IMG/VR virus record: IMGVR_UViG_3300042554_002914
Reading direction: 5' to 3' (one strand)
Length of the DNA stretch: 64,000 nucleotides
Source of the DNA: a virus
Lineage: Duplodnaviria; Heunggongvirae; Uroviricota; Caudoviricetes
Both the position numbers and the translations under genes were made by a program. This document shows, piece after piece, positions 5,800-48,087 of this stretch (positions are counted from its first letter, which is position 1; each line of letters starts with the position of its first letter). The notes under the pieces are model-generated. The model was not told the DNA's origin. It ran no database searches and worked only from the letters and a program-made list of their open reading frames with translations.

Positions 5800-8700
5800 T
5801 TATTGTATAATATCGGCACTATCAGCAAGTTCCAAGACAATGCTAGGCCCCCACTTCAAGAATGATGATGCGCCGTACTTCCCAGATGGGCAAGTTATAA
5901 ATTCGGCATTGGTTATAACCCTGATATTCACCGTAGCACCCTCTGCAGGCCCCTCAGTGAAAATTATCCTCGACCCTTCCACCCTGTACGAATAGTCGCC
6001 CGCAGACGCACCCTGGAAGTAAGGAATCTGCATAGAACCCCCCAGATTAACTAAAATATTCTGAGAACTAACTGAAGCAGCGTTAACTGGTCTTGGGAGA
6101 GTTTCTGCTACATCGAAGTACCCATAAGTCAAATCAAATTCGGTTTTCACACCATTAAACTGGCTGGAGATGGAATTTAAAGAATATACTTGAACAGGAA
6201 AAACCGACTGAATGGCCCAGAAAGAAGAGGTACAAACAGTTCTAACATCAAACACGGTGCCAACTGCAAGGGCTTCGGAAAAAGTGATTTCCAACTCAGA
6301 GCCAGAGAGCCTAGTTAGGGTGTAAGAGTAAGGATCTAATGGACCGGGGGTTGTTATGGGCAACTGTCCAGTACCACCTAAGAATACAAAAGTATTATTG
6401 GCGTTAATGTCGAACGGTGCCAAGTTAATTGCAGGATCTTTTGATACCAAAGTAAACGAGAACCGGATGCCATTAATACTCTGGCCTTCCTTGATCTTTA
6501 GGGGCACCATTTGCAAAGTCCTATTATCATCATCAGATGTGACGATTCTAATATCACTCACTGCCCCTTGCAAAGGAGCTTCATTGAAGATTATTTGATT
6601 GCCATTGACTGTGTAGTCCTTACCGGGCACCTGAGTGACGGCCCCTAGAATTGCAAAAATGGAGTTAGCTGAAATCTGAGTTGGAGGTATGGGGACCCCA
6701 CCTTTAGTCAAGGTGAAGATAGTCGTGATACCGTTGAATAGGGGCGAAATAGAATCCGTTGAATATGCAGTAACCTGCCCAGGAAACTCTACAAATGGTT
6801 GCTGTTCGTAAATTTGTTGATTGGTCAGGTTTGCGAATGGGTTGATTTGCTCGAAATAGTTAGCTGTAAGGGCTTGTCTTTGGGGGCCAAAAATGATGAT
6901 TTCACCCTTATCGTTGACACCAGTAATTGTCAGCCTGCCACTCCACAAAGTAGTTGCTTGGAAGTCCGCCGCTAATTTTCTAGAGATATCGTTTGTTTGG
7001 AATTTAGGTAAGCCACGGGAGTAATTGTAGTATCCTACATATGCCCATGTATGAGTATTAGCAATGACTATGGACGGTTGATTGAATTCTACAGGCCACC
7101 TACTGGTAGTTAGGGCATAACCACCGGTTTCGGGGGTCAATGGTAAAGCACCGATGGGCAAGAGCCTATCCCCCCAATATTTAGGTTGAAGGTAAGTAAG
7201 TAGAGACTCCGGAGAATACCCCATAATCTGGAAGAATCTCAGTATTGCTCTCTTAGTGTTGGACCAATTAGGGTCATATAGCCCCGGTTCAGGAATGGGA
7301 TTAGTTCCACAAACCTTAACGGAAGTTTGAATGGGCCAAGAATTTGGTATAGTACCGGAATTAAAGTAGAAACCATTACCGGAGTTAAGTCTGATGGCCC
7401 TAACTATGGAGCCTGAGATACCAATTATTCGGACAAACTCATGATTGGTGTCATTTCCGATTCTGACGATAGAAACAGTTTGCCTAGGGTTCTGTAGAAC
7501 ACTAGCAGATAGAACAGAGAACTCAACTATTTCTGGCCTGTATCGTTGTGTGGGCCCTGGCAACCGCTCGGTTTGAATAACCGCAAGTGGGCTCACCAAG
7601 AAAGTCTCTGCACTGGTAACTAAATCTTTAAGGCAAATACCAAGGGATTCGGAACCATCATCATCGTCGTACTGATTATTAACCGGGTAGGTGGTGTAAG
7701 GGTTGGTAGAACCCCGGAAGTAGGTAGAATTTGGATAAACCGATAAATATTCATCTGCAGCATAGGACCCCTGGAAAGTCTGGCTGACTAAGTCCTGTCT
7801 TTCTAAGGTACTAGTATCGACGAATGGGGAATTGGTAGAAGTTGGGGATAGTTTTTCTGGTCCTGATGAGGGCTGGAAGTTACTAGCCTCCCCATAATAA
7901 ACTGAGGTCCAGTAATTATTTTCCGCAGCATACCAGTTTCTATTGGCGTATGTAGTGTAGGTTCCCGAAGGGTTATCGAAAGTCAGGTAACTATTACTGC
8001 CGGAGTCATAATTCTGCACCCACGGCCTATCGTAATCGGATGCCGTTATGGTAACATAGTACTCTATGTCTTGATTCCCATCCCCAATCAAATAGTTAAA
8101 CTGAGGTGAAGATCCCAAAATTCCCGTCTCCACTGCATCCACGGTGAACACACGGCCCCATCCCCCTAGTATCCCTGGGTCAAATTGAACATTGGGCCTT
8201 AAACTCGATGACCCGAGAATCTGACTACTTTGGTTGAGACGTAAAACATCGCCTATTTGAGGAGAAATAGCATTCGATGACGTATTACTTAATACTACGC
8301 TATAAGACTTTTCAATATCACTACGGGGGTCATGGAAACGCCTGATGTATGGCACCCCTAGGACAGGGATCAAATTGGTGTCAGTCGGTATAGTGCTGTC
8401 AGAAGACCTAATTCTCAACTGAGCAAATCTAGCCGGGTCATCCTGACCAGTGTTGATTGTGGGGCCACCATCTGTGGCCAGGAAGCCACGGTATGTGCAT
8501 TCTTCCGTCTCTACCCAAATTGCACTACCCGGCTTCAAAGAATAAGGAAGTAAATACCGTGGATCAAAATCCGCACTCAACTCAACTAGCTGAATTTCGG
8601 TATTAGTTGGATCAATGTAAGAGCTTACTATTCTGGATCCCAGGGAAAGAATCTTTTTGTTTTCTGACTTCTCAACTTGACCGATAGTTAAAGTCAAAGG

Positions 8701-10623
8701 TCTCTGGATGCCTTCAAAGACAAATCCTTGAGTATTATTCTGTGCTCCACTTATTGTATTTATTCCTAGAAAACCTTCGGCTTTGAAAGCTATGGACCCG
8801 AAGTTACTTGTGCTGTTAGTTAGGCTGGTGATTCCCCCATTTAGTGACCATACCCCAATTGCTGGACCGATGGTGTACACAGATTGTAGTTGAGCATAGG
8901 CTCCGTTCCTCACTCTGAACCCAAAATGTCTAAAATCATTATCTATATCTACTATGCCTAAACTAAGATTATCAACGGTTTTTAGGTTCTGATAGTAATA
9001 ACGTATGTTATTGATGGGTACTGAATTTAATTCTTGGAGCTGGTCTTCAACGGTTATATCAACTATAGATGCGGGCCTTTGGGATAAAGGCTTGGATAGA
9101 TATGTATACTCAGTCAATGACCACCATTTTTGTTCAGACCCTAGAGTGGTATAAACCTCATATGCCGTTGGGTCATTTTGTAGGCTGACAGATGTACAAG
9201 AGTTGGCAATGATGGACTTAAACCCAAGGACATTGGACCCGTCAAAATCAGTAAAACACATCCCATAATCAGACTTTAGATTTACCTGATTGACATAGGA
9301 TGATGAATTTTTTGTAGTATTTGAATTAATATTGTTCGGGAATGCCGTATCGGTGGGGCCCACGATGACAAAATCACCTGAATTAACCAGTAAATCACCG
9401 TCAGTTACTCTGCCCCCAAAGAATTCTGGGAAGGCTCTTTGAACCTTAGTATAATACTCGGCTAAGTCATTTTTAGATGCCTCTTCAACTACTCTTAGTC
9501 TGTGGGCTGATTTCAAAGTAAGGGAACAGCTGAAACTCACAGTCCTGGAATTGACATTAAGTGGAATTGATGTAAACGCAACGCTAGGTGCTCCACTAAA
9601 TGGTAATTGCTTTTCTGTGGATAACTGAAAAGTATATGTTGTTATGGGGATGGCATAGTATTCACCAGTAGAGAAAGTCCCAGTGCTTTGATCGATGCCA
9701 GGTGAGTACTGGATGTTAACTAAATCATTCAACTCTAGACCATGGGGCCTCCTAGTTCTGAATAGTGCGTAGGTATTCTGATTGGTAACTTCGACTACTT
9801 CGTTGTAGTTTACTTTATCGTTGATGGAAAAGTTGGAAAGGGACGAGTTGCCTGACAGTTTAAAAATAGAAGTTATAGGTTGATTAACTCCTGCTAATGC
9901 GGTAGGGAAAGTGTGGTTACGGTATGAAGGTACATATGAAGGGCAAACTACGCACTTTTTCAGGTCCAAACCAACGATAGAAATACCAGATGGCACTATA
10001 ATGGACCCGCTCTCAGTGTTAAATTTGCTTAAATCAGAGCTGGAAATATTTTCCGTTCCATAATTTGATAAGTCAAGAGAGAAGTCCGACAAGCTCTGCC
10101 CAGGGCCATTATTAGCGGTGAATCTTGACGACGCCAAAAAGATTGTGTACCTATTAGATTCACTCTTCTGGGATAAACCAGCCAGTACGTTGCTGATATA
10201 AATTTTCGATAGCTCCAGGATAGCCCTTGTTAATGTCTGGTAGGGCAATGCTTGTCCATCATTGGCAATGGCATCCGAGGAGAACTGAAATTCCGGGGCT
10301 ACAAATACTACATTACCATTGCCCCCAAGGAAAGGCGCTGCGATTGACCTCCATGACCTTACAGCATCACCTACATTCAAAGTACCGTCAACGGTATTCA
10401 ACCAGGATTCACCCCTCTCTGGGGTGCTTGTAGGGGCATCTGGTAGAACTGCCGTAGGACCAACTTTAATTACTCTTCCATCTGTTGTTCCAAAGAATAA
10501 TCCCGGTTCTTGGCTATTGGTGTTCAAACCGATTTCGCCGGGTTGCAGTTGGTTGGTAGGACGCTTACCCAGAAGGCTGGATTTTGCGAAAATGATTTTG
10601 TTTGCTGATTGTTCTCTGGTCAT
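5800..10623 (-). CDS. Tail fibre / tail protein (1607 aa), paralogue of 1994..5755
   Basis: Shares blocks with the neighbour: GFKSIIANSCTSVSLQ vs GFKSMVVAQFTGVSLQ; HTWAYVGYYNYSRGLPKFQ vs HAWEWAGFLNYTKALPRYQ. C-terminal repeats of the FNG..T.F.L type. Confidence 0.7.
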   Translation of the reverse strand: MTREQSANKIIFAKSSLLGKRPTNQLQPGEIGLNTNSQEPGLFFGTTDGRVIKVGPTAVLPDAPTSTPERGESWLNTVDGTLNVGDAVRSWRSIAAPFLGGNGNVVFVAPEFQFSSDAIANDGQALPYQTLTRAILELSKIYISNVLAGLSQKSESNRYTIFLASSRFTANNGPGQSLSDFSLDLSNYGTENISSSDLSKFNTESGSIIVPSGISIVGLDLKKCVVCPSYVPSYRNHTFPTALAGVNQPITSIFKLSGNSSLSNFSINDKVNYNEVVEVTNQNTYALFRTRRPHGLELNDLVNIQYSPGIDQSTGTFSTGEYYAIPITTYTFQLSTEKQLPFSGAPSVAFTSIPLNVNSRTVSFSCSLTLKSAHRLRVVEEASKNDLAEYYTKVQRAFPEFFGGRVTDGDLLVNSGDFVIVGPTDTAFPNNINSNTTKNSSSYVNQVNLKSDYGMCFTDFDGSNVLGFKSIIANSCTSVSLQNDPTAYEVYTTLGSEQKWWSLTEYTYLSKPLSQRPASIVDITVEDQLQELNSVPINNIRYYYQNLKTVDNLSLGIVDIDNDFRHFGFRVRNGAYAQLQSVYTIGPAIGVWSLNGGITSLTNSTSNFGSIAFKAEGFLGINTISGAQNNTQGFVFEGIQRPLTLTIGQVEKSENKKILSLGSRIVSSYIDPTNTEIQLVELSADFDPRYLLPYSLKPGSAIWVETEECTYRGFLATDGGPTINTGQDDPARFAQLRIRSSDSTIPTDTNLIPVLGVPYIRRFHDPRSDIEKSYSVVLSNTSSNAISPQIGDVLRLNQSSQILGSSSLRPNVQFDPGILGGWGRVFTVDAVETGILGSSPQFNYLIGDGNQDIEYYVTITASDYDRPWVQNYDSGSNSYLTFDNPSGTYTTYANRNWYAAENNYWTSVYYGEASNFQPSSGPEKLSPTSTNSPFVDTSTLERQDLVSQTFQGSYAADEYLSVYPNSTYFRGSTNPYTTYPVNNQYDDDDGSESLGICLKDLVTSAETFLVSPLAVIQTERLPGPTQRYRPEIVEFSVLSASVLQNPRQTVSIVRIGNDTNHEFVRIIGISGSIVRAIRLNSGNGFYFNSGTIPNSWPIQTSVKVCGTNPIPEPGLYDPNWSNTKRAILRFFQIMGYSPESLLTYLQPKYWGDRLLPIGALPLTPETGGYALTTSRWPVEFNQPSIVIANTHTWAYVGYYNYSRGLPKFQTNDISRKLAADFQATTLWSGRLTITGVNDKGEIIIFGPQRQALTANYFEQINPFANLTNQQIYEQQPFVEFPGQVTAYSTDSISPLFNGITTIFTLTKGGVPIPPTQISANSIFAILGAVTQVPGKDYTVNGNQIIFNEAPLQGAVSDIRIVTSDDDNRTLQMVPLKIKEGQSINGIRFSFTLVSKDPAINLAPFDINANNTFVFLGGTGQLPITTPGPLDPYSYTLTRLSGSELEITFSEALAVGTVFDVRTVCTSSFWAIQSVFPVQVYSLNSISSQFNGVKTEFDLTYGYFDVAETLPRPVNAASVSSQNILVNLGGSMQIPYFQGASAGDYSYRVEGSRIIFTEGPAEGATVNIRVITNAEFITCPSGKYGASSFLKWGPSIVLELADSADIIQ

Positions 10624-10672: not shown

Positions 10673-11869
10673 TTAATCCTTAGAATAGTCTTTGACTCCA
10701 TCATACAAAATGTCGATAACTTTGGCAGCGTCATTGTTTGATAGCTTGGCCCATGGGCCTTTCTTGTATGACTTCAGGGGCTGCCCAACCCTGGACACAA
10801 TCATATAGGTAATTTCGTTGTCGGAGATGCCGTGACTCCTGAGCGCATCGTAAACCCTGGGCAGATTGTCCCTCATTTTTAGCAAATTCTGGGGGGCATC
10901 CCCCTTGATTGACCCTTTATGTACTCCCATTTGGGGGTCTGTTTTTGATCTATGGTCCCCAGAGGTCAAGGGATCAGTTTTTCTAAGGTCGAAAGTCGAA
11001 CCTTTTGGTAAAAACCCCTTGTTGGTAAAAGCCCCCAGTGCTTCAGATAACGCTGCTTTGACGCTTTGCTGCGATAAGCCCATATCAACAAACCTGGACC
11101 TACCATTTTTATCGATCAATACGTTATCACTATGTGCATCGTTGTGAGCTATCCCGAGCCTATGGACCTGTGATCTCAAGAACCAGTAAGCATCTCCAAT
11201 GGATGTCTTTCCTACTTTGTCTGAAGACTTACTAAAGTTACCATAACTCTCACCTGGCACCAGTCCCATGACTATACGACCATTTATTATATAGACACCA
11301 CCCTCTGCCTTTGGTTTGCCTTTGGCTATTTCCCCATATATCAGTTTAGGACCTAAACCGGCTTTCCCTAAGATTTGAGTTATTTCCGCTTCCGTTGTAC
11401 TTACCTGGCCACGTTTAACGGCATAGCTCGGGTTTCCTTTTATCAAGAGCACAGTACCAAATCCACCTTCCCCTAATTTGGTTCCTTTACTTAGGGACCC
11501 GGACCAGTCAAATTGATCCTTAGTGCCATTAATGATCCTACCTACCTTGAAACTAGAATCAAAATCAGAAGCATCATCTCTGGCCCATTGTGTGTTACCA
11601 GTAATTATTTTTCCTGGCCTCTTGATTGACTCTTGATTTACTTTGGGTACAGATTTTGTGCTTGCTTTTGTGTTTGGTTTCACCCTCGCCAAGTAGTCTT
11701 CCAGACTTTCCTTGGCATCATCGATGAAACTAGCATCAATAGACCCGGATATACGGTCAATAGATTTAGATATGTTATCTCCAAAATCAACCCTACAAAC
11801 TTTTATTCGGGAGATGCACGTTGACCCACATGATTTTCCTATATCACACCTGTCCCCTTTACCAAACAC
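10673..11869 (-). CDS. Protein kinase-like protein with N-terminal Cys-rich tag
   Basis: Gly loop LGEGGFGTV, AVK lysine, catalytic loop HNDAHSDNVLI, DMG in the DFG position; N-terminal CDIGKSCGSTCISRIKVC. Confidence 0.75.
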   Translation of the reverse strand: MFGKGDRCDIGKSCGSTCISRIKVCRVDFGDNISKSIDRISGSIDASFIDDAKESLEDYLARVKPNTKASTKSVPKVNQESIKRPGKIITGNTQWARDDASDFDSSFKVGRIINGTKDQFDWSGSLSKGTKLGEGGFGTVLLIKGNPSYAVKRGQVSTTEAEITQILGKAGLGPKLIYGEIAKGKPKAEGGVYIINGRIVMGLVPGESYGNFSKSSDKVGKTSIGDAYWFLRSQVHRLGIAHNDAHSDNVLIDKNGRSRFVDMGLSQQSVKAALSEALGAFTNKGFLPKGSTFDLRKTDPLTSGDHRSKTDPQMGVHKGSIKGDAPQNLLKMRDNLPRVYDALRSHGISDNEITYMIVSRVGQPLKSYKKGPWAKLSNNDAAKVIDILYDGVKDYSKD

Positions 11870-11873
11870 GGAC

Positions 11874-12308
11874 TCAGCCCCCGTTTAGTAAAGTCTCTAG
11901 TCTAGCGATTCGGTTTGATACTGTGTCTATCTTTTCGGAATATGACAATTCTTCACCTGTGGCGATTCGGTGGTCATCGGTATTCTTTCTGGCCAGGTCC
12001 AGGGTGGCCATCTTGGCATCTATGTCTTCGCGCTTCTTGACTAGCTCCTTAACTTGCTTCATTTGTTCTTGCAAGGATTGAAACGCCCCCCTCTGACGGG
12101 AGATTTTCATTTTCTCGTTTAGGGACTCTATTTGGCTGGTTAAATCCGTATGCTTTTTCCCAAGGTCTCCATACTCGCTATAACTAGGTCGAAGGCCCAG
12201 GACTACTGTAGGCTCCATTACAGTACCTTTGGCATAATCTGTGGGCTTATGGGAATAAGCTTGGATCGCCTTATCGTATGCTTCTTTTGAGATTTTATCT
12301 TTTCTCAT
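11874..12308 (-). CDS. Hypothetical coiled-coil protein
   Basis: Co-oriented ORF; GGGTAAAA motif 23 nt upstream. Confidence 0.6.
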   Translation of the reverse strand: MRKDKISKEAYDKAIQAYSHKPTDYAKGTVMEPTVVLGLRPSYSEYGDLGKKHTDLTSQIESLNEKMKISRQRGAFQSLQEQMKQVKELVKKREDIDAKMATLDLARKNTDDHRIATGEELSYSEKIDTVSNRIARLETLLNGG

Positions 12309-12337
12309 TTTAAGAGTCCATTATGTTTTCTTTTACC

Positions 12338-12727
12338 CTAATTGAAGTCGATGTTTTTTCTGGCCATAATATCCATGGCTTCATTCCATTTAAATCGATT
12401 CGACCACCAGGCCGATGAAGATGGCCCTTTAGCGATGTTCTTGGAGTGCCTAGACTTAAACTTTTTACGCTTCATCTTCATGCGTTCAGATTCACCTTCT
12501 TTAGGTGGCCCAGCAGTTTCTGCCCCCTTTTGGCCAAATTTCTTCAATTCTTCCTTACCGTCATGGCACCATTTGACCACATGGCTTTTTTCGTCGCCAG
12601 ATTTAGTAGGGCGTGGTTTATTACAAGCCATTTTAGACTTGTCATAAGTCTCCCCAAACTGCTCAGCAAACATGTTATAGAATGCCTCTAGGGCTTCATC
12701 GCTGAAATTTGCACTACCGTAAAGCAT
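12338..12727 (-). CDS. Basic hypothetical protein, possible internal head protein
   Basis: KSHVVKWC...KFGQKG...RKKFKSRH...SAWWS resembles a small basic domain seen in viral proteins (from memory). Confidence 0.55.
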   Translation of the reverse strand: MLYGSANFSDEALEAFYNMFAEQFGETYDKSKMACNKPRPTKSGDEKSHVVKWCHDGKEELKKFGQKGAETAGPPKEGESERMKMKRKKFKSRHSKNIAKGPSSSAWWSNRFKWNEAMDIMARKNIDFN

Positions 12728-13143
12728 TACTCTTTCTCTCCATGTTTCAAATAGTCTGCAATTGCTGTTAAACTGTGGGAAGCTTCTGAAATTTTTGATG
12801 CTATCCAGGGGTCTGAGTTGCTATTGGGGGTGATCATTCCTAAGGAAGTGGCGATATTATCCTGCATTGATTTTAACTGAGTGATTAACATACCACCATT
12901 AGGTTCGAAATCAGCGTCCCCTTCCCCCATGATAAAAGTCGATGGTTTTGTGATGGGTTCTTTTTTCATACCGGGGGCAATGGCCATCTTATCCATTGGG
13001 GTAAGGTCGGGGTTTTGACCCCCTGATGCTTCACCAGATCTGGTAGTCCTGGGACCTTTAGCACCCTTGGCAGCATTCTCCACAAAATTCAAGTCAAAGC
13101 CCAAACCTTGGAGACGTCTCCAATCGTACTCAGAAATAGTCAT
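12727..13143 (-). CDS. Hypothetical protein
   Basis: N-terminus EYDWRRLQGLGFDLNFVE is nearly identical to that of 13952..14452. Confidence 0.6.
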   Translation of the reverse strand: MTISEYDWRRLQGLGFDLNFVENAAKGAKGPRTTRSGEASGGQNPDLTPMDKMAIAPGMKKEPITKPSTFIMGEGDADFEPNGGMLITQLKSMQDNIATSLGMITPNSNSDPWIASKISEASHSLTAIADYLKHGEKE

Positions 13144-13218
13144 TTTATCTCAGGAAGTAATTAATGTTACCCTGTGAGGGTTGGGGTCGTAATACTTGGG
13201 AATTAAATACCGCCATAC

Positions 13219-13938
13219 CTAGCGAGGCCACCATTTAAATAATTTCCGGAGTGGCGATGGCTGAATGAATCGTGTCCTCATGATTTCGGAAATTTCCAGG
13301 TACAGGTTTTCTAAGGTATCCTTATTGCTTTTTATTGTTAAATCAAATTTATTCCTTTCTTCAGTACCGTACTGAACTGACAAGATTCCAATTGGCAAAT
13401 TACCCACCTTAACCATCCTATTGTAGAAACAGTCAATCCCATTCCTAGACAGATAGTCCTTACAAGCTTGAGGCAATTCCTCACTAAATTTCACAGTCAA
13501 CCAATCATTTTCCTTAAGCATGGCTTCAATATCCCTTATGAAACTGCCTATTTGAATATCTTTTACCGGGGATGCCATAGCAGAACTATCTTTAGCTGTG
13601 TAGGTATTGGTAGTGGACATTTTTTGGAGGTGGTACCCCGTAAAATCAACTTGTCCATTATGGAAGGAACACAAAATAACCCTAGAAGCATTAGTTATGA
13701 TACCAATTTGAGCCAAACAAGTGTTGATTTCCTTTTCTTTCTCGATGTGATTTAGAAAGACATCTAGTTTATTTATAGTTCGGGGGGCAATCACCTTGGT
13801 AACAAGGGCCCAAAGGGCAAACCCAAGGACCAACACGGAATCGCCGGTAAAAGTGAAATTGACTGGGGCTTGGGGAGCAGGTTGCGGAGCAGGTTGCGGA
13901 GCAGGGGCCCCTTGACTGATATTATTTGGAGTGGTCAT
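13219..13938 (-). CDS. Single-TM membrane protein with GAF-like C-terminal domain (holin candidate)
   Basis: Start moved to ATG 13938 to avoid overlap with the upstream gene. PQPA repeats, TM SVLVLGFALWALVTKVIA, then ASRVILCSFHNG...PIGILSVQY. The function is inference. Confidence 0.45.
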   Translation of the reverse strand: MTTPNNISQGAPAPQPAPQPAPQAPVNFTFTGDSVLVLGFALWALVTKVIAPRTINKLDVFLNHIEKEKEINTCLAQIGIITNASRVILCSFHNGQVDFTGYHLQKMSTTNTYTAKDSSAMASPVKDIQIGSFIRDIEAMLKENDWLTVKFSEELPQACKDYLSRNGIDCFYNRMVKVGNLPIGILSVQYGTEERNKFDLTIKSNKDTLENLYLEISEIMRTRFIQPSPLRKLFKWWPR

Positions 13939-13951
13939 AGAATTTGGTAAA

Positions 13952-14452
13952 TTATTTGGTTTTAGAGTGCTTTTTCCAAAGGTCGTTATCAGCCTGGCGA
14001 GCCTTACCAACTCCTGTAATAAATGAATTCACTCTGGCTAATGCCCATTGCTGCGGGGAAACTCCGGGCCGGTGACCGGAACGCCATGCTGCGATCCCTC
14101 TACTGTATACTTCTCCTAGGATACTAGCAGAAATTCCGGACTTCTCAGATTTTGCTTTTAGTGCCTTGCTAGACCCCTCTGAATACTTATCATCGAAGGC
14201 TTTAGTTGCGGGGGATTGAGGGATTTTTTCGTTTCTTTTCCTGAACTTATCGTCAGATTCCCAATCTTTGTATAGGTCTTTGGGTGATACTCCAGGGTCT
14301 TTAGCCTTTTGCATCGTTTCTTTAGCTTCTTCCTTGGCGATGGTTTGTTCCTTGGGGGTCAATCCTTTTTTATACCTAGCAGGTAGGGCCCTCTCTACAA
14401 ACTGCAAATCAAAGCCAAGACCCTGTAGGCGGTTCCAGTCGTATTCCATCAA
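13952..14452 (-). CDS. Hypothetical protein with DUF5824-like C-terminal domain
   Basis: ALKAKSEKSGIS...VYSRGIAAWRSGHRPG...QQWALARVNSF; family recalled from memory. Confidence 0.55.
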   Translation of the reverse strand: MMEYDWNRLQGLGFDLQFVERALPARYKKGLTPKEQTIAKEEAKETMQKAKDPGVSPKDLYKDWESDDKFRKRNEKIPQSPATKAFDDKYSEGSSKALKAKSEKSGISASILGEVYSRGIAAWRSGHRPGVSPQQWALARVNSFITGVGKARQADNDLWKKHSKTK

Positions 14453-15216
14453 TTGCCATCCGGTAAACCACTACCACCATTTTCAAGCCTTTGCCTGACA
14501 GTTTCCGGTAAACCAGATTCCCATTTGTTTTTGATTGCGATGCGGATGATGGCAGCCATAACCTTACGTGGATCAGCGGTGCGACCTACGGATGACCATG
14601 CAGCAGCGACATCTTGGGGGCTAGCGATTGGGAAAGACATTCCGGGGCCTGCGAATTCCCCCTTTGTTTTTCCTGCCTTTAGTTTTTCCCTGGACTCAGC
14701 ATCCCATTCCCTGAATTTTGCTGAATTGCTTGGCTTCGCGTTACATGAGTTACATTTACAATTACCCGACTGGCAAGACTTGCATTTATCTTCTTTGAAC
14801 GGTTGGGGAATTGACATCAGTTCGGTATCGTCTGCAAAGTTATATTCTTTTCTTTTAAGTTCTTTGAAAGAATCCATTCTAGCTTTGCGGCGACCCATGA
14901 TTTCCTTCATAGCATCTGCCCCGTCAGCGTGGCTATCATAGTCCCTATTGACTAGGTTGGCCCTCCGTTCTCGGATGGCCTTATTGCCCTTTAGAATAGC
15001 CTCCTTGTGCATCGACAAGCCACCTTCAGGGGTGGGGGACCATTTACGGCCGATTTTATTCCTTTTCATCAACTGATCAGTAGAAATGGCATTACTGGCA
15101 TTTAACTGTCCCCCGACACCCGGCAAGAGTACAGAGGAGAAATCCATGTGTTCTCCGTAAGGCATAAGAGTAGTTAGAAACTTATTTCTTTTACCCTTTG
15201 CCTTCGGTATTTGCAT
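14449..15216 (-). CDS. Hypothetical protein, possible internal head protein (true start may be ATG 15165)
   Basis: CKSC...CKCNSC cluster; C-terminal FAGPGMSFPIASPQDVAAAW domain; the GGGTAAAA motif at 15189-15196 lies 24 nt upstream of ATG 15165. Confidence 0.55.
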   Translation of the reverse strand: MQIPKAKGKRNKFLTTLMPYGEHMDFSSVLLPGVGGQLNASNAISTDQLMKRNKIGRKWSPTPEGGLSMHKEAILKGNKAIRERRANLVNRDYDSHADGADAMKEIMGRRKARMDSFKELKRKEYNFADDTELMSIPQPFKEDKCKSCQSGNCKCNSCNAKPSNSAKFREWDAESREKLKAGKTKGEFAGPGMSFPIASPQDVAAAWSSVGRTADPRKVMAAIIRIAIKNKWESGLPETVRQRLENGGSGLPDGN

Positions 15217-15511
15217 CTGAGTTGCTATCTAAACTATTGTCCTTATTGTTTGACTTACCGGAACTCCCCTTGGCAGCCATCCCCAAAGCAGCAGCGGGTA
15301 CTAGCAACGCTAAGAAGACATTGGCTGCGGATTTGGCAGTTTCGGAGAAACTATCGGATATTTTTAAGCAAAAAGCTGAGTAGGAATCATTTGGTGATTT
15401 CCTTAGGTTATTGCGGCACGATATATTTTCATACCCTATCATGGCAATTTGTGCTACAAAAATAGCCACCAAAGCTCTGACTAAAAATGCTCTCTCGTTG
15501 AATTCTTTCAT
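15191..15511 (-). CDS. Small two-TM membrane protein
   Basis: Two hydrophobic stretches: FLVRALVAIFVAQIAMIG and ANVFLALLVPAAALGMAA. Confidence 0.55.
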   Translation of the reverse strand: MKEFNERAFLVRALVAIFVAQIAMIGYENISCRNNLRKSPNDSYSAFCLKISDSFSETAKSAANVFLALLVPAAALGMAAKGSSGKSNNKDNSLDSNSDANTEGKG

Positions 15512-15561
15512 TGCCCTTCAGCGAATCTACTTAGATTTACCCTTTGCTGACTGGTTAATTC

Positions 15562-15741
15562 TTAAAGGTAACGCATCCCCTCAATTACTTCGGGAGATAC
15601 CGAGCCTGAACTCTTTAATTCTTGGGCTGCCTTAAGGAGGGTTTGGGCCTTTTCTAAATCAGCAGGGTCTCTGCGGGCGACTTTATAAGCCCCCATTAAT
15701 TTTTGGTATTTTTTATCGGATTCAGACATTTTGCTTGCCAT
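15562..15741 (-). CDS. Small helical protein, 59 aa (below the ORF track cutoff)
   Basis: Hand translation MASKMSESDKKYQKLMGAYKVARRDPADLEKAQTLLKAAQELKSSGSVSPEVIEGMRYL; fills the gap between co-oriented genes. Confidence 0.6.
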   Translation of the reverse strand: MASKMSESDKKYQKLMGAYKVARRDPADLEKAQTLLKAAQELKSSGSVSPEVIEGMRYL

Positions 15742-15774
15742 CAGACCTTGTCGTATAGAAGGTCAATGTATTTC

Positions 15775-16050
15775 TTAGGGTTTTGCTAGGGGCTTCGCTG
15801 CGGACTTCTTAGCCGGGGATACCTTTTGAACTTTCTTAATTGCTTCAACAGCTTTATTTAGGCCCATGTTTAAAGACCAGGGGATATCAACCATGCAAAC
15901 ATGGTATCTCGGGATGCAGGATGCTCCGCAAGATTTCCCTTTGTTGCACTTTTTTCTTTTTAATTTGGGCAAATTGAGGCCGCCTAGTCTGGCTATTTGG
16001 CCTCTTTTTGCGGTATTAATTTCAGCTTCCGTTTTTCCCAGGGGTGCCAT
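15775..16050 (-). CDS. Small protein consisting mainly of the Cys-rich tag (possible deletion remnant)
   Basis: KKCNKGKSCGASCIPRYHVCMVD, the same motif as in 10673..11869 and 17740..18543. Confidence 0.6.
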   Translation of the reverse strand: MAPLGKTEAEINTAKRGQIARLGGLNLPKLKRKKCNKGKSCGASCIPRYHVCMVDIPWSLNMGLNKAVEAIKKVQKVSPAKKSAAKPLAKP

Positions 16051-16086
16051 TGAATTCAGGGTATTTATGCTTTAAATTTACCCAAT

Positions 16087-16779
16087 TTATTCCTTGTCGT
16101 TGTATTCCCCGTCTTCATCATCATCGTCATCGTCCGAGTCTTCATCGCCACCTTCGCTAAGGATCTCATCGATCAGGGTATCAATTTCATCTTCATTTAG
16201 TTCTTCTTCACCTTCGACTTCGGACTCCTCATAAGGGTCTTCTTCGTATTGGGTTTCGTTGTCGTTGCTGTTGTCGTTGTCGTCAGAGTCACTTTCTGCG
16301 TCATCGTCAGAATCGCTCTCATCCGAACCCCAAATCTCTTCAGAAAGGCGTTTAAATTCTTCATCGGTTAGGAATGTTGAGTTTTCATCTGAATCTTTAA
16401 TATCATCGGCATCTTCGGCATCTTCGGCATCTTCATCAACTTCTTCGGCACCATCTCCCGGGCTAGCCGGAAAATAATCGTCTGGATTAAATGGCTGGTT
16501 GGGTTTAAAGTCACGGGACATACCATCATTGGCTTTCCAGAGCCCGGTATGCTCAATCCAGGGAGATGTATTATGAACTACGTTAGTTGGCAACCCATTA
16601 ATGGGGTCAATTTCGTGATCTTCAGGGTTTGACAATTGAGCTGCATAAGCTGCGCGGAAAGCTTCAATAGCATCCTGTTCAAAATCGCCGTTGATTCTAT
16701 TCGTCATTTGTTTAAGGGTCGGTACTTGAATGTTTAAGTGTTGGGGGGGAGGGGTTTGGGGTGTTGGGCCCTGGTCCAT
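16087..16779 (-). CDS. Highly acidic hypothetical protein
   Basis: C-terminal half dominated by D/E. Confidence 0.65.
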   Translation of the reverse strand: MDQGPTPQTPPPQHLNIQVPTLKQMTNRINGDFEQDAIEAFRAAYAAQLSNPEDHEIDPINGLPTNVVHNTSPWIEHTGLWKANDGMSRDFKPNQPFNPDDYFPASPGDGAEEVDEDAEDAEDADDIKDSDENSTFLTDEEFKRLSEEIWGSDESDSDDDAESDSDDNDNSNDNETQYEEDPYEESEVEGEEELNEDEIDTLIDEILSEGGDEDSDDDDDDEDGEYNDKE

Positions 16780-16878
16780 TCAGCTTTCAGTTTTTAGGCC
16801 TATTTCAGCAAATGTTGAAAGTGTGCCCCGAGACCTACTTAGACCAATGATTATTACCCATCGTGCTGGCGGTAGGGG

Positions 16879-17220
16879 TCACCACTTTTCAATTTTACCG
16901 GAAATATCTTGCAATAATTTGCTATTGCCTTGAAGTTCCTCTTCATATTGTCTTATGGTGGCCTTGACTTCAGCCTTTAATTTACCCTCTTTAATGAGAC
17001 GTTCCTTTCTCTCATCGTCAGTTTCTTCCTTTTCAGCGTGATTTCCGTCAGCATCGTCAGCATCATCAATAACCACGGGGTGAATCTCATGAGTTAACCT
17101 ATCTAGGAGTTTATCCATAGAGTCTTTCAACCCCCTTCTACACACTGAATCGGCAGAAATTTCCATGGGGCCGCAAGGAATCCTGTATAAGTCTCTAATT
17201 TTAGCCTCAGTTTTGTCCAT
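16879..17220 (-). CDS. Hypothetical protein
   Basis: Co-oriented ORF abutting its upstream neighbour. Confidence 0.55.
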   Translation of the reverse strand: MDKTEAKIRDLYRIPCGPMEISADSVCRRGLKDSMDKLLDRLTHEIHPVVIDDADDADGNHAEKEETDDERKERLIKEGKLKAEVKATIRQYEEELQGNSKLLQDISGKIEKW

Positions 17221-17221
17221 G

Positions 17222-17557
17222 TCAAGCCCCTTCTCTAGGTTTTAAAATCCATTCATTTTCGTAATCCGTGTAATGGATACCTTTTCTTTTTTCTAATCTT
17301 CTGGCAGGGTCTTTCTTGTTGGCTTCCCTCATACCGTTTACCATGATGTCCCGCATGGCCCTAAGTTTTTCCTTTGGCACTTCACAGTGTGGGCTGTCCC
17401 TGTAGCTTCTATACCATTTACAAACTTCTGAGGGATCATCAGATTGTAACATCATGTTCCAGATTCCCATTTCTTGGCTACCGGTTAGCGTACCCACTGG
17501 TAATTTACCTTCTAGGTCTTCACGGGGTGGCCTATTAAATCTTGTGTCTCTTCTCAT
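17222..17557 (-). CDS. Hypothetical protein
   Basis: 4-nt overlap with the upstream ORF. Confidence 0.55.
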   Translation of the reverse strand: MRRDTRFNRPPREDLEGKLPVGTLTGSQEMGIWNMMLQSDDPSEVCKWYRSYRDSPHCEVPKEKLRAMRDIMVNGMREANKKDPARRLEKRKGIHYTDYENEWILKPREGA

Positions 17558-17736
17558 TGGGTAGCTACCAGTAGGGCTTCCATTAGTTCATTTTTGATAA
17601 ACTCAGATGACTCCATGTCCCCTCTTTTTCCCTCTAAATCAGACAAGGCAGACAAGGCTTTTGCATATTTATCGAAGTTTTCTTTATCGGAAGGTGCCTT
17701 ACGAATTAAGGCCTGGGCTTTTTCGATGCTATCCAT
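17554..17736 (-). CDS. Small helical protein, 60 aa
   Basis: Starts 3 nt after the metallopeptidase stop. Confidence 0.55.
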   Translation of the reverse strand: MDSIEKAQALIRKAPSDKENFDKYAKALSALSDLEGKRGDMESSEFIKNELMEALLVATQ

Positions 17737-17739
17737 AGT

Positions 17740-18543
17740 TTACCTCAGTAAGTTCCCTTCCCTTAGAACAGACTCCACCAGTTCATATTCCGCTGGAAAA
17801 AGTTTTTTCATTTTGGGTCCAGCGAATATGTAACTTGAAAATAGCTCAGCATAGTGCTCTAGTTGATTTGTTTTACTGTATGTGCTAACTCTTTTGAAGC
17901 TATCGGGAATTCCAACTTCTTTCGCTTTGAAGTGAGCGTGGTGCCCTAGTTCGTGGACTAACGTCACCAGTGTATTATTGCTGGCTGACCCTGGAGCTTT
18001 ACCCATAGTGTGTGGCAGTTCTTTACCTTGGGCGGCACTGGATAAGTGCTTTTCGGCAGTGGCCTTTATTTTCTTTACTTGCGGGGTAAACCCCTGAGCT
18101 GACCGAATAACTGTGACCCCTTCTTTATACGCTAACCCGCCCCAAGTCTTATTGTAGATTTTCTGCGAGATGGTGAAATCTGGGTTTTTGAAGTACCCTG
18201 AAAATGCGCTTCTGAAGGCTTCTTTGTTGCCTGCAATGTCCTTCCAGTCCATGAATAGGGTCTTAGTCTTATTGAAAATCCTCTGGAGAACTTCTACTCT
18301 GCGGGGGGCGTCTGGGTCCAGGGTTTTTAAATCCCGGATGGCACCCATGATGGAGTTCCTGTTAAAGTCTATCTTTAAGTCAGGGTGAGCTTTTACTTCG
18401 CCACTTCTCATTAGCTTGATGAATTTCCCAAGGGAATCTGCAATATATGGGCTTAATTCAACTCTGCAAACTAAACCCCGTTGAATGCAAGTTGAGCGAC
18501 AAGATTTCCCTAAAGAACATCTTTTCTTCCCGGACCCCCCCAT
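17740..18543 (-). CDS. Zincin-type metallopeptidase with N-terminal Cys-rich tag
   Basis: TLVHELGHHAH (HEXXH) with downstream STYSKTNQLEHYAELF; N-terminal KKRCSLGKSCRSTCIQRGLVCRVE. Confidence 0.7.
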   Translation of the reverse strand: MGGSGKKRCSLGKSCRSTCIQRGLVCRVELSPYIADSLGKFIKLMRSGEVKAHPDLKIDFNRNSIMGAIRDLKTLDPDAPRRVEVLQRIFNKTKTLFMDWKDIAGNKEAFRSAFSGYFKNPDFTISQKIYNKTWGGLAYKEGVTVIRSAQGFTPQVKKIKATAEKHLSSAAQGKELPHTMGKAPGSASNNTLVTLVHELGHHAHFKAKEVGIPDSFKRVSTYSKTNQLEHYAELFSSYIFAGPKMKKLFPAEYELVESVLREGNLLR

Positions 18544-18722
18544 CTCTGGGGTGCGCCTAGGTGCTGAATGGTTCCTGCAATTGCAAAATCAAATTCTTTA
18601 GGGTTATCTATTTCGATCATTAGTCCTCGTACCTGCCTATGGGGAATTTAATAGATGACGGGGTATATAGTAGTCCATGAATAAGATTTACCCAGGGTCA
18701 CACTAACTCCCCCCCCTATCCA

Positions 18723-19544
18723 TTAAGCTTCGTATGCCTCCAAGATTTCTGCTATGATGCCGTTCCTGACGATGTCCCCTCTTTCAAATTTAACTCTCCC
18801 CACCCCTCTAATGGAGGAAAGCCGGTGATAGCAATCTAAAAGTCCATTTTCAGGTTTAAATACATCTAGGTCAATTTGCCTTGTGTCACCCGTAATGACA
18901 ACTTTCGAGTCTTTTCCAACCCTACTGAGGACGGTTTTAACATTTTCTGGTAATGAATTTTGGGCCTCATCAAAAAGAATTAGGCACTCATTTAGTGATC
19001 TCCCCCTCAAATCCTCTAGGAGTGTGGGTTCTACAATCTTTTTATCTACAAGGTAATCCGCAGCCCCCTTGCTTCTAGTCATTACAACCAAATTGTCATA
19101 AACAGGTCCCACCAGTGGCTTCATTTTTTCTTCCAGGGTTCCAGGAAGAGCCCCCCTATTTCTTTGGTGAGAACAGCCTACGTCACTTCTAATGTAATAA
19201 ATTTTTTGAATGTTACCCTTAGAAATTTCACTCAATCCCCACCATAGCGCCACTAAGGTTTTTCCAACTCCTGATGGGCCTATAGCAATGGTGACTGTAT
19301 TCTTATTTAAAGAAGACCACAAGTCCTCCTGATGGTTTGTTTTCGGGTAAAAGGGTAGAACATCCATTCCCCTATAAGAGTGCTCAACCATTTGGGCGGA
19401 CTCTGCGCGGCGCGATTTGCGCTTGTCTTTTGATCTCAACATTTGGTAAAGAGGGTTAATGACAACTGTGGATAACGTGTATGCTTCGTTGCTAATTTGG
19501 ATTACATGATCCTCACCCCCTTCTAAACTAATAGGCAGAGTCAT
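18723..19544 (-). CDS. phoH: PhoH-family ATPase
   Basis: GPSGVGKT, GALPGTLEEKM, LRGRSL, DEAQN, TGDTRQID, DIVRNG. Confidence 0.93.
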   Translation of the reverse strand: MTLPISLEGGEDHVIQISNEAYTLSTVVINPLYQMLRSKDKRKSRRAESAQMVEHSYRGMDVLPFYPKTNHQEDLWSSLNKNTVTIAIGPSGVGKTLVALWWGLSEISKGNIQKIYYIRSDVGCSHQRNRGALPGTLEEKMKPLVGPVYDNLVVMTRSKGAADYLVDKKIVEPTLLEDLRGRSLNECLILFDEAQNSLPENVKTVLSRVGKDSKVVITGDTRQIDLDVFKPENGLLDCYHRLSSIRGVGRVKFERGDIVRNGIIAEILEAYEA

Positions 19545-19923: not shown

Positions 19924-21336
19924 TCAGGTAACGATGGGTAGTAGTTGACTGTAGCTAACTAAGATTGCACACATGGTATCGGACGGGGGCCCCAATGGAA
20001 TCTGGGGGTCATCACATCTATTCAAAGTGCTTTGGATATTAGGATTGGAAGATTTCACTCTCCCTGAGTCTAGCATATGGGAGATAACGTTTAATGTGGG
20101 TTGTCTCGGCTTGCTACCTACGCAAACGTTTAACCCTAAGCCCTGTAGGTACACAGTCCAAGCTGCACTTACCATGGCGGATTCAAGTACAATTTCTTCC
20201 GCTTCGTATGCCTTAACTGCTAGGCTTAGGATTACTCCGACAGTTTTCAAGTCCCAATTGCCTTCGTAAGTGTCAAGGACATACATGTAGTCCCTTTTCT
20301 TTGTAACCCCTGCGATGCAAATACCTGTTTTATCAATGCTGCCGGCACTGAAAGCAGGATCAACAGAAATAATTACTTTATCTAATGGGGGGATTTTCGG
20401 TGTCGGTGAGCATCCCTTATAGAGCCAGGAGAACTTTTCATCGCCGATATTCCTTCTAATATGGTTCAGATTTTCGGGGGACCAGTAGGAATTGATTCTA
20501 CTCAAGGTTTCCCCTACATTCCTACCAAGAATGTCAGCCTCTGCCTCTTCTTTACTTTCGATAATTGCTGACAAATTAATGTGGACGGCTCCTTTCGGGT
20601 TTGATACGGGGTCGAAAACACCGAATTTATCTAAGAAGTAGCCGAAAATGTCTTCATCGCCCCATCTTGACCCAAAAACAACTATGGCACTGTTTTGGTG
20701 GCGCCGGGTCATAATTTCCTTTTCTATCCAGTCTTTATTTACTGTCATATTTGAGGACTTGTGATAGTCATCGATTAACCAAACCCCTGGTACCCCGTTG
20801 GGTCCACCCCAAGGTGAACGATACCCGTGCGTACGCCAGGGGATGTTAGCCGATGTTACGCTATCAGCCCGCAAATCAAGTTTTGAAAACAATTCCTCAA
20901 AAGGAAAGGCACTAACCAACTGCTTAACTCTACTTACTGCTAAGTCGGTGATACCCCCATTGTAAGAAGTTACGAAATGGTTAGTATCAGGATCTTTCCC
21001 CAGGAGCCAAGACAGAAATAGGGAGCCCAATGTAGACTTCCCAGTACGAGGAGGCATCGATACTAAGAGGATTGGGTACCTGCCTTCGGCAATGTCTTCA
21101 AAGGCGGACCCCAAGACTTCATAAGTTTCCCAATTTAGCAAGGAGTCTGTGCCTTCCGTGGCGCGAGACAAATAGCAAGGGAAACTATATTGGGCGCACT
21201 CTTTAATGTAGTCATTAATTATTTCCTTAGTCGCGCCTCTCATTTCAAGTTCAAGAAGTCCCCTCCTATACTTTCTCCAGCTTGAATGTTCCGATAGCTG
21301 GGAAGCGTGTGTTATTTTCGGGTGTTTTGGTGTCAT
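19924..21336 (-). CDS. Large terminase subunit paralogue 2 (diverged)
   Basis: Walker A MPPRTGKS, Walker B WLIDD, GSRW motif, SVDPAFS nuclease start; N-terminus homologous to 21422..23152. Confidence 0.8.
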   Translation of the reverse strand: MTPKHPKITHASQLSEHSSWRKYRRGLLELEMRGATKEIINDYIKECAQYSFPCYLSRATEGTDSLLNWETYEVLGSAFEDIAEGRYPILLVSMPPRTGKSTLGSLFLSWLLGKDPDTNHFVTSYNGGITDLAVSRVKQLVSAFPFEELFSKLDLRADSVTSANIPWRTHGYRSPWGGPNGVPGVWLIDDYHKSSNMTVNKDWIEKEIMTRRHQNSAIVVFGSRWGDEDIFGYFLDKFGVFDPVSNPKGAVHINLSAIIESKEEAEADILGRNVGETLSRINSYWSPENLNHIRRNIGDEKFSWLYKGCSPTPKIPPLDKVIISVDPAFSAGSIDKTGICIAGVTKKRDYMYVLDTYEGNWDLKTVGVILSLAVKAYEAEEIVLESAMVSAAWTVYLQGLGLNVCVGSKPRQPTLNVISHMLDSGRVKSSNPNIQSTLNRCDDPQIPLGPPSDTMCAILVSYSQLLPIVT

Positions 21337-21421: not shown

Positions 21422-23152
21422 TCAGAGCGATAACCCATAACCAGTGTCATCCCTATTGAGGCGAGGTCTGGAAAAAGACTCTGGACCGATAAAACCAGAA
21501 CCAGAATCTAAATTATTGTAAAGTCCAGCCGAAGGTAAATTCCTCCCTACTCTACCAGTAGGTAAATTTGAATTACCCAAGAATGGCCTTCTGTTTCCTC
21601 CGCTCCACCTCCTCGCTTGTATTATAGCATCTTGTATCCCACGGTCAACGGTGTCTAGCTTCATCGCATAGTACGTCAGGGACCACACAAACGCATCCAC
21701 CGAGTCATCGTGCTTAACGAAGGGGAATCCTGTTAGCTCCTTAATAAAACTATCTACCCATAACCCCTCAACAAGTTTAACCCTGTCATTCTCTAAGAGT
21801 GGGCAAACAGCTTCGAGTCTAACCGTTTTTGACCTAAGGGGTCTCATTTCTTCTACAGGTATTTTTGTTTCCCGTCTCAACATTTGTATCAAAGATTGGC
21901 CGGATGCTGCCTTTTCGATACAGATTACTTTTGGTTTGTAGAAGGAATGTAGTTGCTTAATAGAGGCAATCAAGTCCGGGAAGCCCCATCTCCCTTTAAC
22001 GATTTCCCTAATGTAAACAGTTCTGGGATCTCTAGTCGAAATTCCAGCCACACAGACCGCAGTTTCGTCTGCACCTTCTTTTTCAGAAAACGCACAGTCT
22101 ACACCCAGCCATACTACATCTAGTGGTGGGCACTTTTTTTCTTCTACCATGGCGATCCATCCGGCCTTTACAATTTGACCTTCTGCTGCAGTTGGAGTTC
22201 CCTGATAAAGGGCCGCAAATTTGGAACTGCCCATAGTTTTCTTTTGGGCCTCCAGCATATCAATCGAGAATGCCGGGTTATCAGGCCAATGGGACTCACC
22301 GATTTGCCTGCCTAAGGGGTCATCGACGGGGTCTTCACACAGGCCCGCAATATTCACCCATCTCCAACCTTCCGGGTTTTCTTCCTCATCATAGCTGCCG
22401 TCCGATTCTAAAACCTGGCCATGCAAATCATTGGCATGAAACCTGGTCGCAATAATTAGACGGCAATAATTGTTAGTTTTACGTGTCGATGCCTCTTCTT
22501 GCCACCACGTTTGGAGACTCTCAAAAGCCCTGGCAGAAGCTGAGCTTTTCAGTGGGTCGTCGATTACCATGGCCCCCACACCTGGGCTAATAATGTTTAC
22601 AGACCCTGCCGTATGGCCAGTCAACACACCACCGACAGAAGTAGGCAGGATGTATCCGCCACTAAGCATCTCAAATTTAGAATCCTTGGCAAAACCTTTC
22701 CAATCGGGGAAGATTTTCTTAAAGACAGGTGTCTTCAACATGCCGATAACTTCCTTATGGAACTTATTGGACAGTGATAAACCATAAGAGGCAATAACGT
22801 GTTGAGTTTCTTGATCTCTCCCTAGTAACCAAGCCACAAACATTGATGCCAGCATTGATTTACCAGATCGAGGAGGACAGGATACGATCAAGTTATGGTA
22901 GCGTTTATTTGCTAGATCCTCAAAACCACTGGCAATAATTTCATGGAAATCCGCGACCTTTAACGCACCACCCTTCATTAAGTCTGCAAAAGCCAGGAAA
23001 CAATACCTAGAAGACTCAAACATGTAGTTCTGAATGACAGAGTTTGGTGCTTCTAAGACATTAAGATGATGTAAACCCCTAATGTAATGGCGCCATGAGC
23101 TGTGCTCATCTAGTTGACTAGCGTGGTTTATTATCGGCCGTGGGAGTGTCAT
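21422..23152 (-). CDS. terL: Large terminase subunit
   Basis: CPPRSGKS, VIDDPLK, ATRFH, LYQGTP, GVDCA, IEKAASG, FPFVKHDDSVDA. Confidence 0.93.
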   Translation of the reverse strand: MTLPRPIINHASQLDEHSSWRHYIRGLHHLNVLEAPNSVIQNYMFESSRYCFLAFADLMKGGALKVADFHEIIASGFEDLANKRYHNLIVSCPPRSGKSMLASMFVAWLLGRDQETQHVIASYGLSLSNKFHKEVIGMLKTPVFKKIFPDWKGFAKDSKFEMLSGGYILPTSVGGVLTGHTAGSVNIISPGVGAMVIDDPLKSSASARAFESLQTWWQEEASTRKTNNYCRLIIATRFHANDLHGQVLESDGSYDEEENPEGWRWVNIAGLCEDPVDDPLGRQIGESHWPDNPAFSIDMLEAQKKTMGSSKFAALYQGTPTAAEGQIVKAGWIAMVEEKKCPPLDVVWLGVDCAFSEKEGADETAVCVAGISTRDPRTVYIREIVKGRWGFPDLIASIKQLHSFYKPKVICIEKAASGQSLIQMLRRETKIPVEEMRPLRSKTVRLEAVCPLLENDRVKLVEGLWVDSFIKELTGFPFVKHDDSVDAFVWSLTYYAMKLDTVDRGIQDAIIQARRWSGGNRRPFLGNSNLPTGRVGRNLPSAGLYNNLDSGSGFIGPESFSRPRLNRDDTGYGLSL

Positions 23153-45622: not shown

Positions 45623-45624
45623 GC

Positions 45625-47352: not shown

Positions 47353-47428
47353 TGCCTTCCCCCTTGTTGATATGATGTTTGACCAAGCTACTAAATGTTA
47401 CGCTGTAGAGGTTTTACCCCGTGGAAAC

Positions 47429-47806: not shown

Positions 47807-48087
47807 CTATAACACCTTAGAATTTGAAGCTCTAATTGTCTTACCCTCCTTTTTACCTCCTCTGTAGATAAGTCACTTCCCATGACTTTCTTCATTTCTA
47901 ACCTAATTTGACCATTCGGTAAAGACCCGTACAGTGATGGATCTGTCAGTTGTTCTGAAACTCTTTGATTGTCGCTATCTAGCATATAGAGGCAGAATGC
48001 TTCTAATGAAACACCCTGCCCCTTAGCTTCTTGTTCTAGCTTAGAAAAAAGAGAGTCAGGAATCTGTAGCTTTAATTCCTTGTTCAT
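47803..48087 (-). CDS. Ribbon-helix-helix DNA-binding protein
   Basis: LKLQIPDSLFSKLEQEAKGQGVSLEAF. Confidence 0.65.
   Translation of the reverse strand: MNKELKLQIPDSLFSKLEQEAKGQGVSLEAFCLYMLDSDNQRVSEQLTDPSLYGSLPNGQIRLEMKKVMGSDLSTEEVKRRVRQLELQILRCYR

Follow-up and report, generated by a model that had tools for sequence, protein, structure and literature searches.

A four-cysteine N-terminal module shared by unrelated phage enzymes, a candidate virion-loading tag of an S-CBWM1-like cyanophage lineage

Why should a kinase, a metallopeptidase and a protein of only 91 amino acids begin with the same cysteine-rich sequence? This question is raised by a 64,000-nucleotide stretch of Caudoviricetes DNA from the IMG/VR virus record IMGVR_UViG_3300042554_002914 (hereafter the window, meaning this whole stretch), which belongs to a longer phage record (103,308 bp) whose minus strand holds nearly all genes. 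The original prediction for this DNA was that the shared N terminus, called here the tag, may serve as a zinc-binding capsid-loading signal for enzymes that are injected with the phage genome. Our analysis supports this proposal, which survived tests of the variety of domains joined to the tag elsewhere and of the reported presence of tagged proteins in virions of a relative. Thus, we consider that the tag is probably a virion-loading module for host-takeover enzymes.

The four-cysteine module

All three genes predicted to carry the motif at or near the N terminus were confirmed to do so. The pattern C-x2-GKSC-x3-CI-x5-C-x-V-[DE] is present in three open reading frames (ORFs) on the minus strand of the window, at positions 10673-11869 (398 aa), 15775-16050 (91 aa) and 17740-18543 (267 aa). 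Pattern matching places the corresponding four-cysteine cores, also on the minus strand, at 11787-11848 (CDIGKSCGSTCISRIKVCRVD), 15887-15948 and 18458-18519, respectively. The back-translated DNA pattern matches the window three times and 100 dinucleotide-preserving shuffles of it not once, and a fourth copy was not found elsewhere in the 103,308-bp genome record.

Alignments of 24 distinct copies, and later of 150 proteins, revealed that the motif forms the center of a longer module (about 60 aa), which consists, from the N to the C terminus, of an optional leader helix of amphipathic character, a basic run (GG-KRKR), a four-cysteine hairpin and a helix. The consensus derived from these alignments is M..AGRT..QI..AK..AVGG-KRKR-C-x-KGKSC-[SG]A[TAS]-CI-x3-K-x-C-[LM]V[DE][LI]P[W]-x7-K-x4-I, wherein the cysteines of the hairpin are spaced Cys-x5-Cys-x3-Cys-x6-Cys. 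In all four of the sequences inspected for this feature, a low-complexity linker rich in Pro, Ala and Lys follows the tag. AlphaFold2 modeling of the 91-aa protein with 150 sequences predicted a leader helix (residues 8-22), a short beta-hairpin (39-41 and 44-46) in which two of the four cysteines lie and a second helix (58-75). The hairpin is a probable metal site and, given the invariance of the four cysteines, zinc would be a plausible ion.

The tag itself matched no family in Pfam, NCBIfam or PHROGs. Fold searches with the tag model returned nothing above noise (VIA-align Z scores of at most 3.4; no Foldseek match), and the ESM Atlas held no usable match for the 91-aa protein. The tag seems undescribed so far. 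Its N-terminal place and basic stretch could suggest an export or membrane-targeting signal that acts in the infected cell. However, the tag is hydrophilic and has neither a hydrophobic segment nor a lipobox, and the enzymes that follow it have cytoplasmic-type targets, such that we regard this explanation as extremely improbable.

Beyond the window, the strict DNA pattern was found at 37 loci in IMG/VR, with 46 matches (often several per contig) against about 0.02 expected by chance according to our back-of-envelope estimate, and in every case the motif is located near the N terminus of an ORF. A profile of the tag, when compared with 1.84 billion representative proteins, matched 590 clusters (50% identity) at E ≤ 1e-3, including 208 at E ≤ 1e-10. 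Our examination covered the best 150 of these 590. The match starts within approximately the first 65 residues in 148 of these 150 proteins, the exceptions being P0025 (tag at residues 118-167) and the 3641-aa protein P0120 (internal copies), and all four cysteines are present in 149. Not one of 120 proteins listed has a functional name, nearly all being unnamed or annotated as hypothetical. Other searches were negative. The pattern GKSC[GS][AS][TS]CI had no relative in prokaryotes (one genome per species, 185,579 species), megablast with 20 kb yielded no match among cultured phages, and tblastn with the 53-aa tag likewise found none. This last result was a failure of sensitivity, because the cultured Synechococcus phage S-CBWM1 does carry the tag.

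Enzymes behind the tag and their exchange

Two of the three tagged proteins in the window carry recognizable enzyme domains. The product of the gene at 10673-11869 (minus strand, GTG start; 398 aa), identified by family scan and catalytic residues, has its tag from residue 8, without a leader, and then a linker of about 100 aa followed by an ePK-like kinase domain. Its match to the Pfam Pkinase model (E = 2.7e-6, 27.4 bits) lies below the 31.7-bit gathering cut-off, and the profile of its family matched 820 kinases in the PDB (best E = 2.8e-9). The invariant residues are G133, G135, K152, E160, H242-N243-D244, N249 and D262-x-G264; judged from its sequence, the protein keeps all catalytic residues of eukaryotic-like protein kinases.

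The gene at 17740-18543 (minus strand) encodes a tagged metallopeptidase of 267 aa in the window and 293 aa in relatives, with an HELGH motif and a downstream E-x2-AE (E-x2-AE-x-F) that are both invariant. Its C-terminal domain was modeled with a pLDDT of about 90, and Foldseek ranks first, for this model, the Pro-Pro endopeptidases PPEP-1/Zmp1 together with anthrax lethal factor (its catalytic domain), at a probability of ~1 but with modest scores (E = 1.5e-3, TM ~0.5). The profile match to lethal factor is modest too (E = 0.034), and Pfam gave no match for the window protein. On the strength of its motifs and model, the protein is likely a zincin, and it is possibly M34-like. Comparison of reading frames with relatives revealed a 26-aa leader for this protein (MIEIDNPKEFDFAIAGTIQHLGAPQRWGG; 18534-18620, minus strand) that is shifted out of frame in the window by a poly-G run (~18535-18541) of seven G residues, where four relatives have eight. 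An in-frame ATG at 18543 that overlaps the run still gives the 267-aa form. The shorter run may reflect either a mistake in assembly or natural variation in length.

The third tagged protein (15775-16050, minus strand) is a tag-only protein of 91 aa, made up of the leader helix, the basic run, the four-cysteine core, the following helix and a short Pro/Ala/Lys tail. The predicted kinase and HEXXH peptidase assignments both held up, and the tag does occur on three genes, but this third gene is a remnant lacking an enzyme body.

The original prediction invoked a constant N terminus joined to variable enzymatic C termini, and this architecture is evident among the matches to the tag profile, in which the domains behind the tag include those of kinases, ADP-ribosyltransferases and HNH nucleases, two families of zincins and a domain resembling cytidylyltransferases. 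A Pfam scan of 104 tagged proteins yielded Pkinase (20 proteins), ABC1 (12), APH (9), ADPrib_exo_Tox (6) and ART (3); CTP_transf_like and HNH each matched one tagged protein. Family B (454-618 aa) is an HNH nuclease family that matches the HNH domains of Cas9 (E = 4e-6) and has an invariant E-H...N. Family D, which matches Vis (E = 2.7e-6), is an Arg-type ADP-ribosyltransferase family; we read its conserved positions (Arg, S-W-S-T-S and E-x-E) as an R-STS-ExE motif. A further tagged zincin family has the motif HExxHxxE, for which a profile search found no relative in the PDB, and there are additional tagged families without detectable relatives as well as other tag-only proteins. In one pair, made up of a kinase and an ADP-ribosyltransferase, identity over the first 70 aa reaches 86%, yet the catalytic domains come from different enzyme families.

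Exchange of this kind can also be followed at fixed genomic positions. Every strict-pattern locus with homology to the neighbor genes of the window fits a single conserved gene order, and the terminase of such loci, where in view, is 58-99% identical to that of the window. The order begins with an adaptor, g410, terminase, a second terminase-like gene in some cases, g67, PhoH, tag slot 1, g60, g111, g113 and an acidic protein, and it continues with tag slot 2, g59, g106, g255, a DUF5824 protein, g263, g138, g129, g144, tag slot 3 (kinase) and a giant tail fiber. The tagged genes lie within a block that extends from terminase to tail fiber. In the window, all on the minus strand, this block is anchored by the terminase large-subunit gene (21422-23152), the conserved upstream neighbor of slot 1 is a PhoH-like gene (18723-19544) and the conserved downstream neighbor of slot 3 encodes a giant tail-fiber or baseplate protein (5800-10623).

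In the window and its close relatives, the zincin occupies slot 1, immediately downstream of PhoH, where more distant relatives have an HNH-family protein. Slot 3 holds the kinase of the window. Slot 2 is occupied by a 399-aa kinase in relatives and by the 91-aa tag-only protein in the window, because a kinase body of 979 bp (positions 11023-12001 in locus L009, and also present in L032) has been replaced by 89 bp (15779-15867) between collinear flanks. A short slot-2 form like that of the window is present in locus L028. By this comparison of sequences, the 91-aa gene is what a deletion has left of a gene for a tagged kinase. Tagged genes can also accumulate, as three or four of them stand consecutively in loci L011 and L020. 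One contig of 34.6 kb carries five tagged genes.

Tagged proteins and the virion

By terminase comparison, the cultured phage closest to the window is S-CBWM1 (53.5% identity), which has the same gene order. The tag profile matched its genome (NC_048106.1) five times. One match is gp106, an HNH-family protein at slot 1 that is annotated as a hypothetical protein. Three others are kinases: an APH-like kinase that begins MSGKKC..., and a RIO-like and a ChoK-like kinase that begin MSKRC... and MGKNC..., respectively, when read from upstream in-frame ATG codons, the starts given in GenBank being ones that lose the tag. In the latter two genes, at positions 70398 and 117830 of NC_048106.1, the annotated start lies inside or after the tag, and our analysis thus provides corrected starts for two genes of the S-CBWM1 reference genome. 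The fifth match, gp174, is a full-length homolog of family B. Its gene stands directly upstream of the one for the major capsid protein, and the depositors named gp174 a virion structural protein. The window kinase is homologous to the three tagged kinases (APH-like, E = 5e-19; ChoK-like, 4e-15; RIO-like, 5e-12), and the homology includes the tag. The conserved leader is absent from the window kinase and from all five S-CBWM1 proteins, so the leader helix is, by this comparison, a dispensable part of the tag.

APH, ChoK and Rio2 kinases have been detected in S-CBWM1 virions, according to PMC10665884, which cites Xu et al. 2018 for this result. The virion kinases named there for S-CBWM1 are exactly its three tagged kinases, and a fourth kinase of this phage, which is PknB-like, is untagged and does not appear on the virion list in that paper. 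PMC9146016 holds no statement on S-CBWM1. The absence of tagged proteins from virions would have spoken against a loading signal. Instead, PMC10665884 reports three tagged kinases as virion proteins, in addition to gp174 with its structural annotation.

We propose that the S-CBWM1-like cyanophage lineage attaches the module to many unrelated enzymes, for which it would act as an address that causes their incorporation into the assembling virion. Tagged enzymes would be lodged at some site in the particle, whether or not the tag is cleaved, and would accompany the DNA into the next host cell, where they may modify proteins or nucleic acids of the host ahead of any phage gene expression. The portal (45625-47352, minus strand) is a candidate partner for such cargo. 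Similarly, the head maturation protease (43049-45622, minus strand), which is unusually long at 857 aa, is a candidate processing enzyme.

Several points weigh against this proposal. The virion data are second-hand and concern not the phage of the window but a relative whose terminase is 53% identical, and few proteins underlie the correlation that links the tag to virions. The tagged gp106 is annotated only as a hypothetical protein and not as a virion protein, and it may therefore not have been detected in virions. Some tagged genes are located far from the structural genes in a complete 279-kb relative. The tag model is of moderate confidence only (pLDDT 76-85) and has no fold match, the spacing of the cysteines lacks the CxxC knuckles usual in zinc sites and no partner protein was identified. 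Moreover, kinases may have other routes into virions, since T4-like cyanophages package kinases without the tag.

An alternative that takes up some of these points is that the tag is a basic metal-binding module for nucleic acid or for a host target, which would bring enzymes to one common site such as DNA, RNA polymerase or the ribosome, their presence in virions being incidental, perhaps through sticking to packaged DNA. The strongly basic run GG-KRKR-C-x-KGK with its four invariant cysteines is consistent with such a role, a structural partner was not found, and a kinase, an ADP-ribosyltransferase, an HNH nuclease and a peptidase could plausibly have a nucleoprotein target in common. However, the tag matches no known DNA- or RNA-binding fold or family, and binding of this kind would leave unexplained its N-terminal place, the flexible linker in the sequences inspected and the late structural block in which the genes reside. 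DNA binding and packaging are, in addition, compatible with each other. We judge this alternative rather unlikely.

Returning to the proposed loading module, the cargo of other cyanophages offers a comparison. Among the virion proteins of S-CREM2 are a kinase, an HNH protein described as 'Cas9-like' and a cytidylyltransferase (PMC10665884), and the tag was not found in S-CREM2, S-CRM01, S-B68, S-H34 or S-TIM5. Because T4-like virions hold similar enzymes without the tag, the types of cargo appear to be common to cyanomyoviruses, whereas the four-cysteine address appears to be specific to the S-CBWM1-like lineage. As a separate observation, T4-like cyanophages of cluster C, namely S-CREM2 (OR473000.1), S-CRM01, S-B68 and S-H34, encode kinases of 650-820 aa, and S-CREM2 has an 869-aa 'Cas9-like' HNH gene closely behind its kinase gene, with both products flagged as virion proteins. 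These kinases and HNH proteins resemble the tagged effectors but have different, long N-terminal regions.

Known systems and neighboring genes

In phage T4, the internal proteins IPI, IPII, IPIII and Alt bear a capsid targeting sequence (CTS), an unstructured peptide of ~10-19 aa that is cut off by the prohead protease after Leu/Ile-x-Glu. The tag resembles the CTS in being a shared N-terminal address on otherwise unrelated proteins, and the T4 set likewise includes an ADP-ribosyltransferase. CTS cargo is loaded into the virion and reaches the host along with the DNA, and its genes vary between related phages, features that the tagged proteins would share. The tag differs in being a conserved, probably folded four-cysteine module of ~60 aa with an unrelated sequence. 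The C-x-V-[DE] of some copies resembles L-x-E, but Asp dominates at the last position, and V-[DE] is not kept in S-CBWM1. T4 Alt is described in PMC5512222.

Another explanation is that the tag is a regulatory or safety pro-domain, such as a redox or metal switch or an oligomerization or stability element, that would hold potentially toxic enzymes in an inactive or stable state within the cell that makes them. One small module is unlikely to inhibit at least six unrelated folds across a long flexible linker, even though the four invariant cysteines, the pro-peptide-like position at the N terminus and the head maturation protease encoded nearby are features that a pro-domain could have, as is the existence of tag-only proteins. 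The cleavage motif, furthermore, is not conserved between the uncultured lineage and S-CBWM1, and the correlation with virions would be left unaccounted for. We consider a pro-domain improbable.

As for virion loading, the MuF polymorphic toxins and other MuF-fused effectors (PMC5512222) also join a constant, virion-associated N-terminal part to variable enzymatic C termini. A further likeness is that the C-terminal region of the window zincin recurs at the end of a 762-aa 'head morphogenesis' protein of Prochlorococcus phage MED4-184, whose gene stands beside the portal gene. Unlike MuF effectors, however, the tagged genes are located between PhoH/terminase and the tail fiber and not beside the portal, and Pfam scans of the window proteins and of a further 152 tagged proteins gave no Phage_Mu_F match. 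The analogy to MuF-fused polymorphic toxins that accompanied the original prediction consequently stands as a functional likeness, but neither a MuF domain nor an immunity gene was found.

Polyvalent proteins of phages and conjugative elements, which are thought to travel with the DNA, have the same repertoire of conflict enzymes, namely kinases, ADP-ribosyltransferases, zincins and nucleases (PMC5512222). They differ from the tagged proteins of the window in carrying two or more effector domains, whereas each enzyme of the window has one, and P0120 alone fits their description. This 3641-aa metagenomic protein is a giant of polyvalent type with DnaJ, alpha/beta-hydrolase and GNAT domains, and it has three clear internal copies of the tag (at residues 901, 1371 and 3331), the profile counting five matched stretches. 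The word 'cysteine' does not occur in the main text of the survey in PMC5512222, and the four-cysteine module is therefore apparently not among the polyvalent domains described there. The window kinase is also like the virion-associated kinases of the cyanophages S-CBWM1, S-CRM01, S-TIM5 and S-CREM2 (PMC10665884), being homologous to those of S-CBWM1 with the tag included; a shared N-terminal or cysteine motif is not mentioned in that paper. By analogy, the architecture works like CTS cargo, MuF-fused effectors and polyvalent proteins, yet it belongs to none of these systems, because the MuF domain and the adjacency to the portal are absent and there is one enzyme per protein.

A number of neighboring features were noted in the window. 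The small neighbor genes g59 and g60 were considered as immunity genes of a toxin-immunity system, and this reading was rejected because they have no fixed position relative to the tagged genes across loci. Between the tag slots, an extremely acidic, Asp/Glu-rich protein of 230 aa (16087-16779) and a 255-aa protein with a CKSCQSGNCKCNSCN cluster (14449-15216) are both kept in relatives. Two different proteins (12727-13143 and 13952-14452) share a second N-terminal motif, EYDW-x-RLQGLGFDL-x-FVE, which by analogy may be another address of the same kind as the four-cysteine tag. One of the two carries DUF5824 and matches the C terminus of a PHROG family named cytidyltransferase. A search for a homolog of this g166 (DUF5824) protein with its EYDW...GFDL motif in S-CBWM1 was negative.

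The window contains tandem genes resembling terminase large subunits, at 19924-21336 (470 aa) and 21422-23152 (576 aa), with ~30% mutual identity. Both are kept in close relatives, and the distant loci L010, L012, L022 and L031 show only the 576-aa one. At 43049-52005, the window has the order tail sheath (48103-52005), a 125-aa ORF with weak baseplate matches (47429-47806), portal and head maturation protease. Promoter and terminator scans gave counts equal to chance, and we therefore draw no conclusion on transcription units.

Only in a few model phages is it known which proteins travel inside the particle and act first on the next host. If the tag is a marker of such cargo, the injected effectors of a widespread cyanophage lineage could be listed by sequence alone, including kinases, ADP-ribosyltransferases, nucleases, peptidases and several families without a known fold, and the presence of several kinases in S-CBWM1 virions would be explained. 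The tag would also offer a handle for studying how cargo is loaded and for loading chosen proteins into cyanophage particles. A bolder proposal, which we put forward tentatively, is that the tag is a portable, metal-dependent virion-packaging domain, hitherto unrecognized, that defines the whole injected set of an abundant freshwater and estuarine cyanophage lineage and comprises hundreds of effector families, many without a known fold. If this were true, the sequence itself would reveal the injected effectors, and these capsids could be made to take up foreign proteins.

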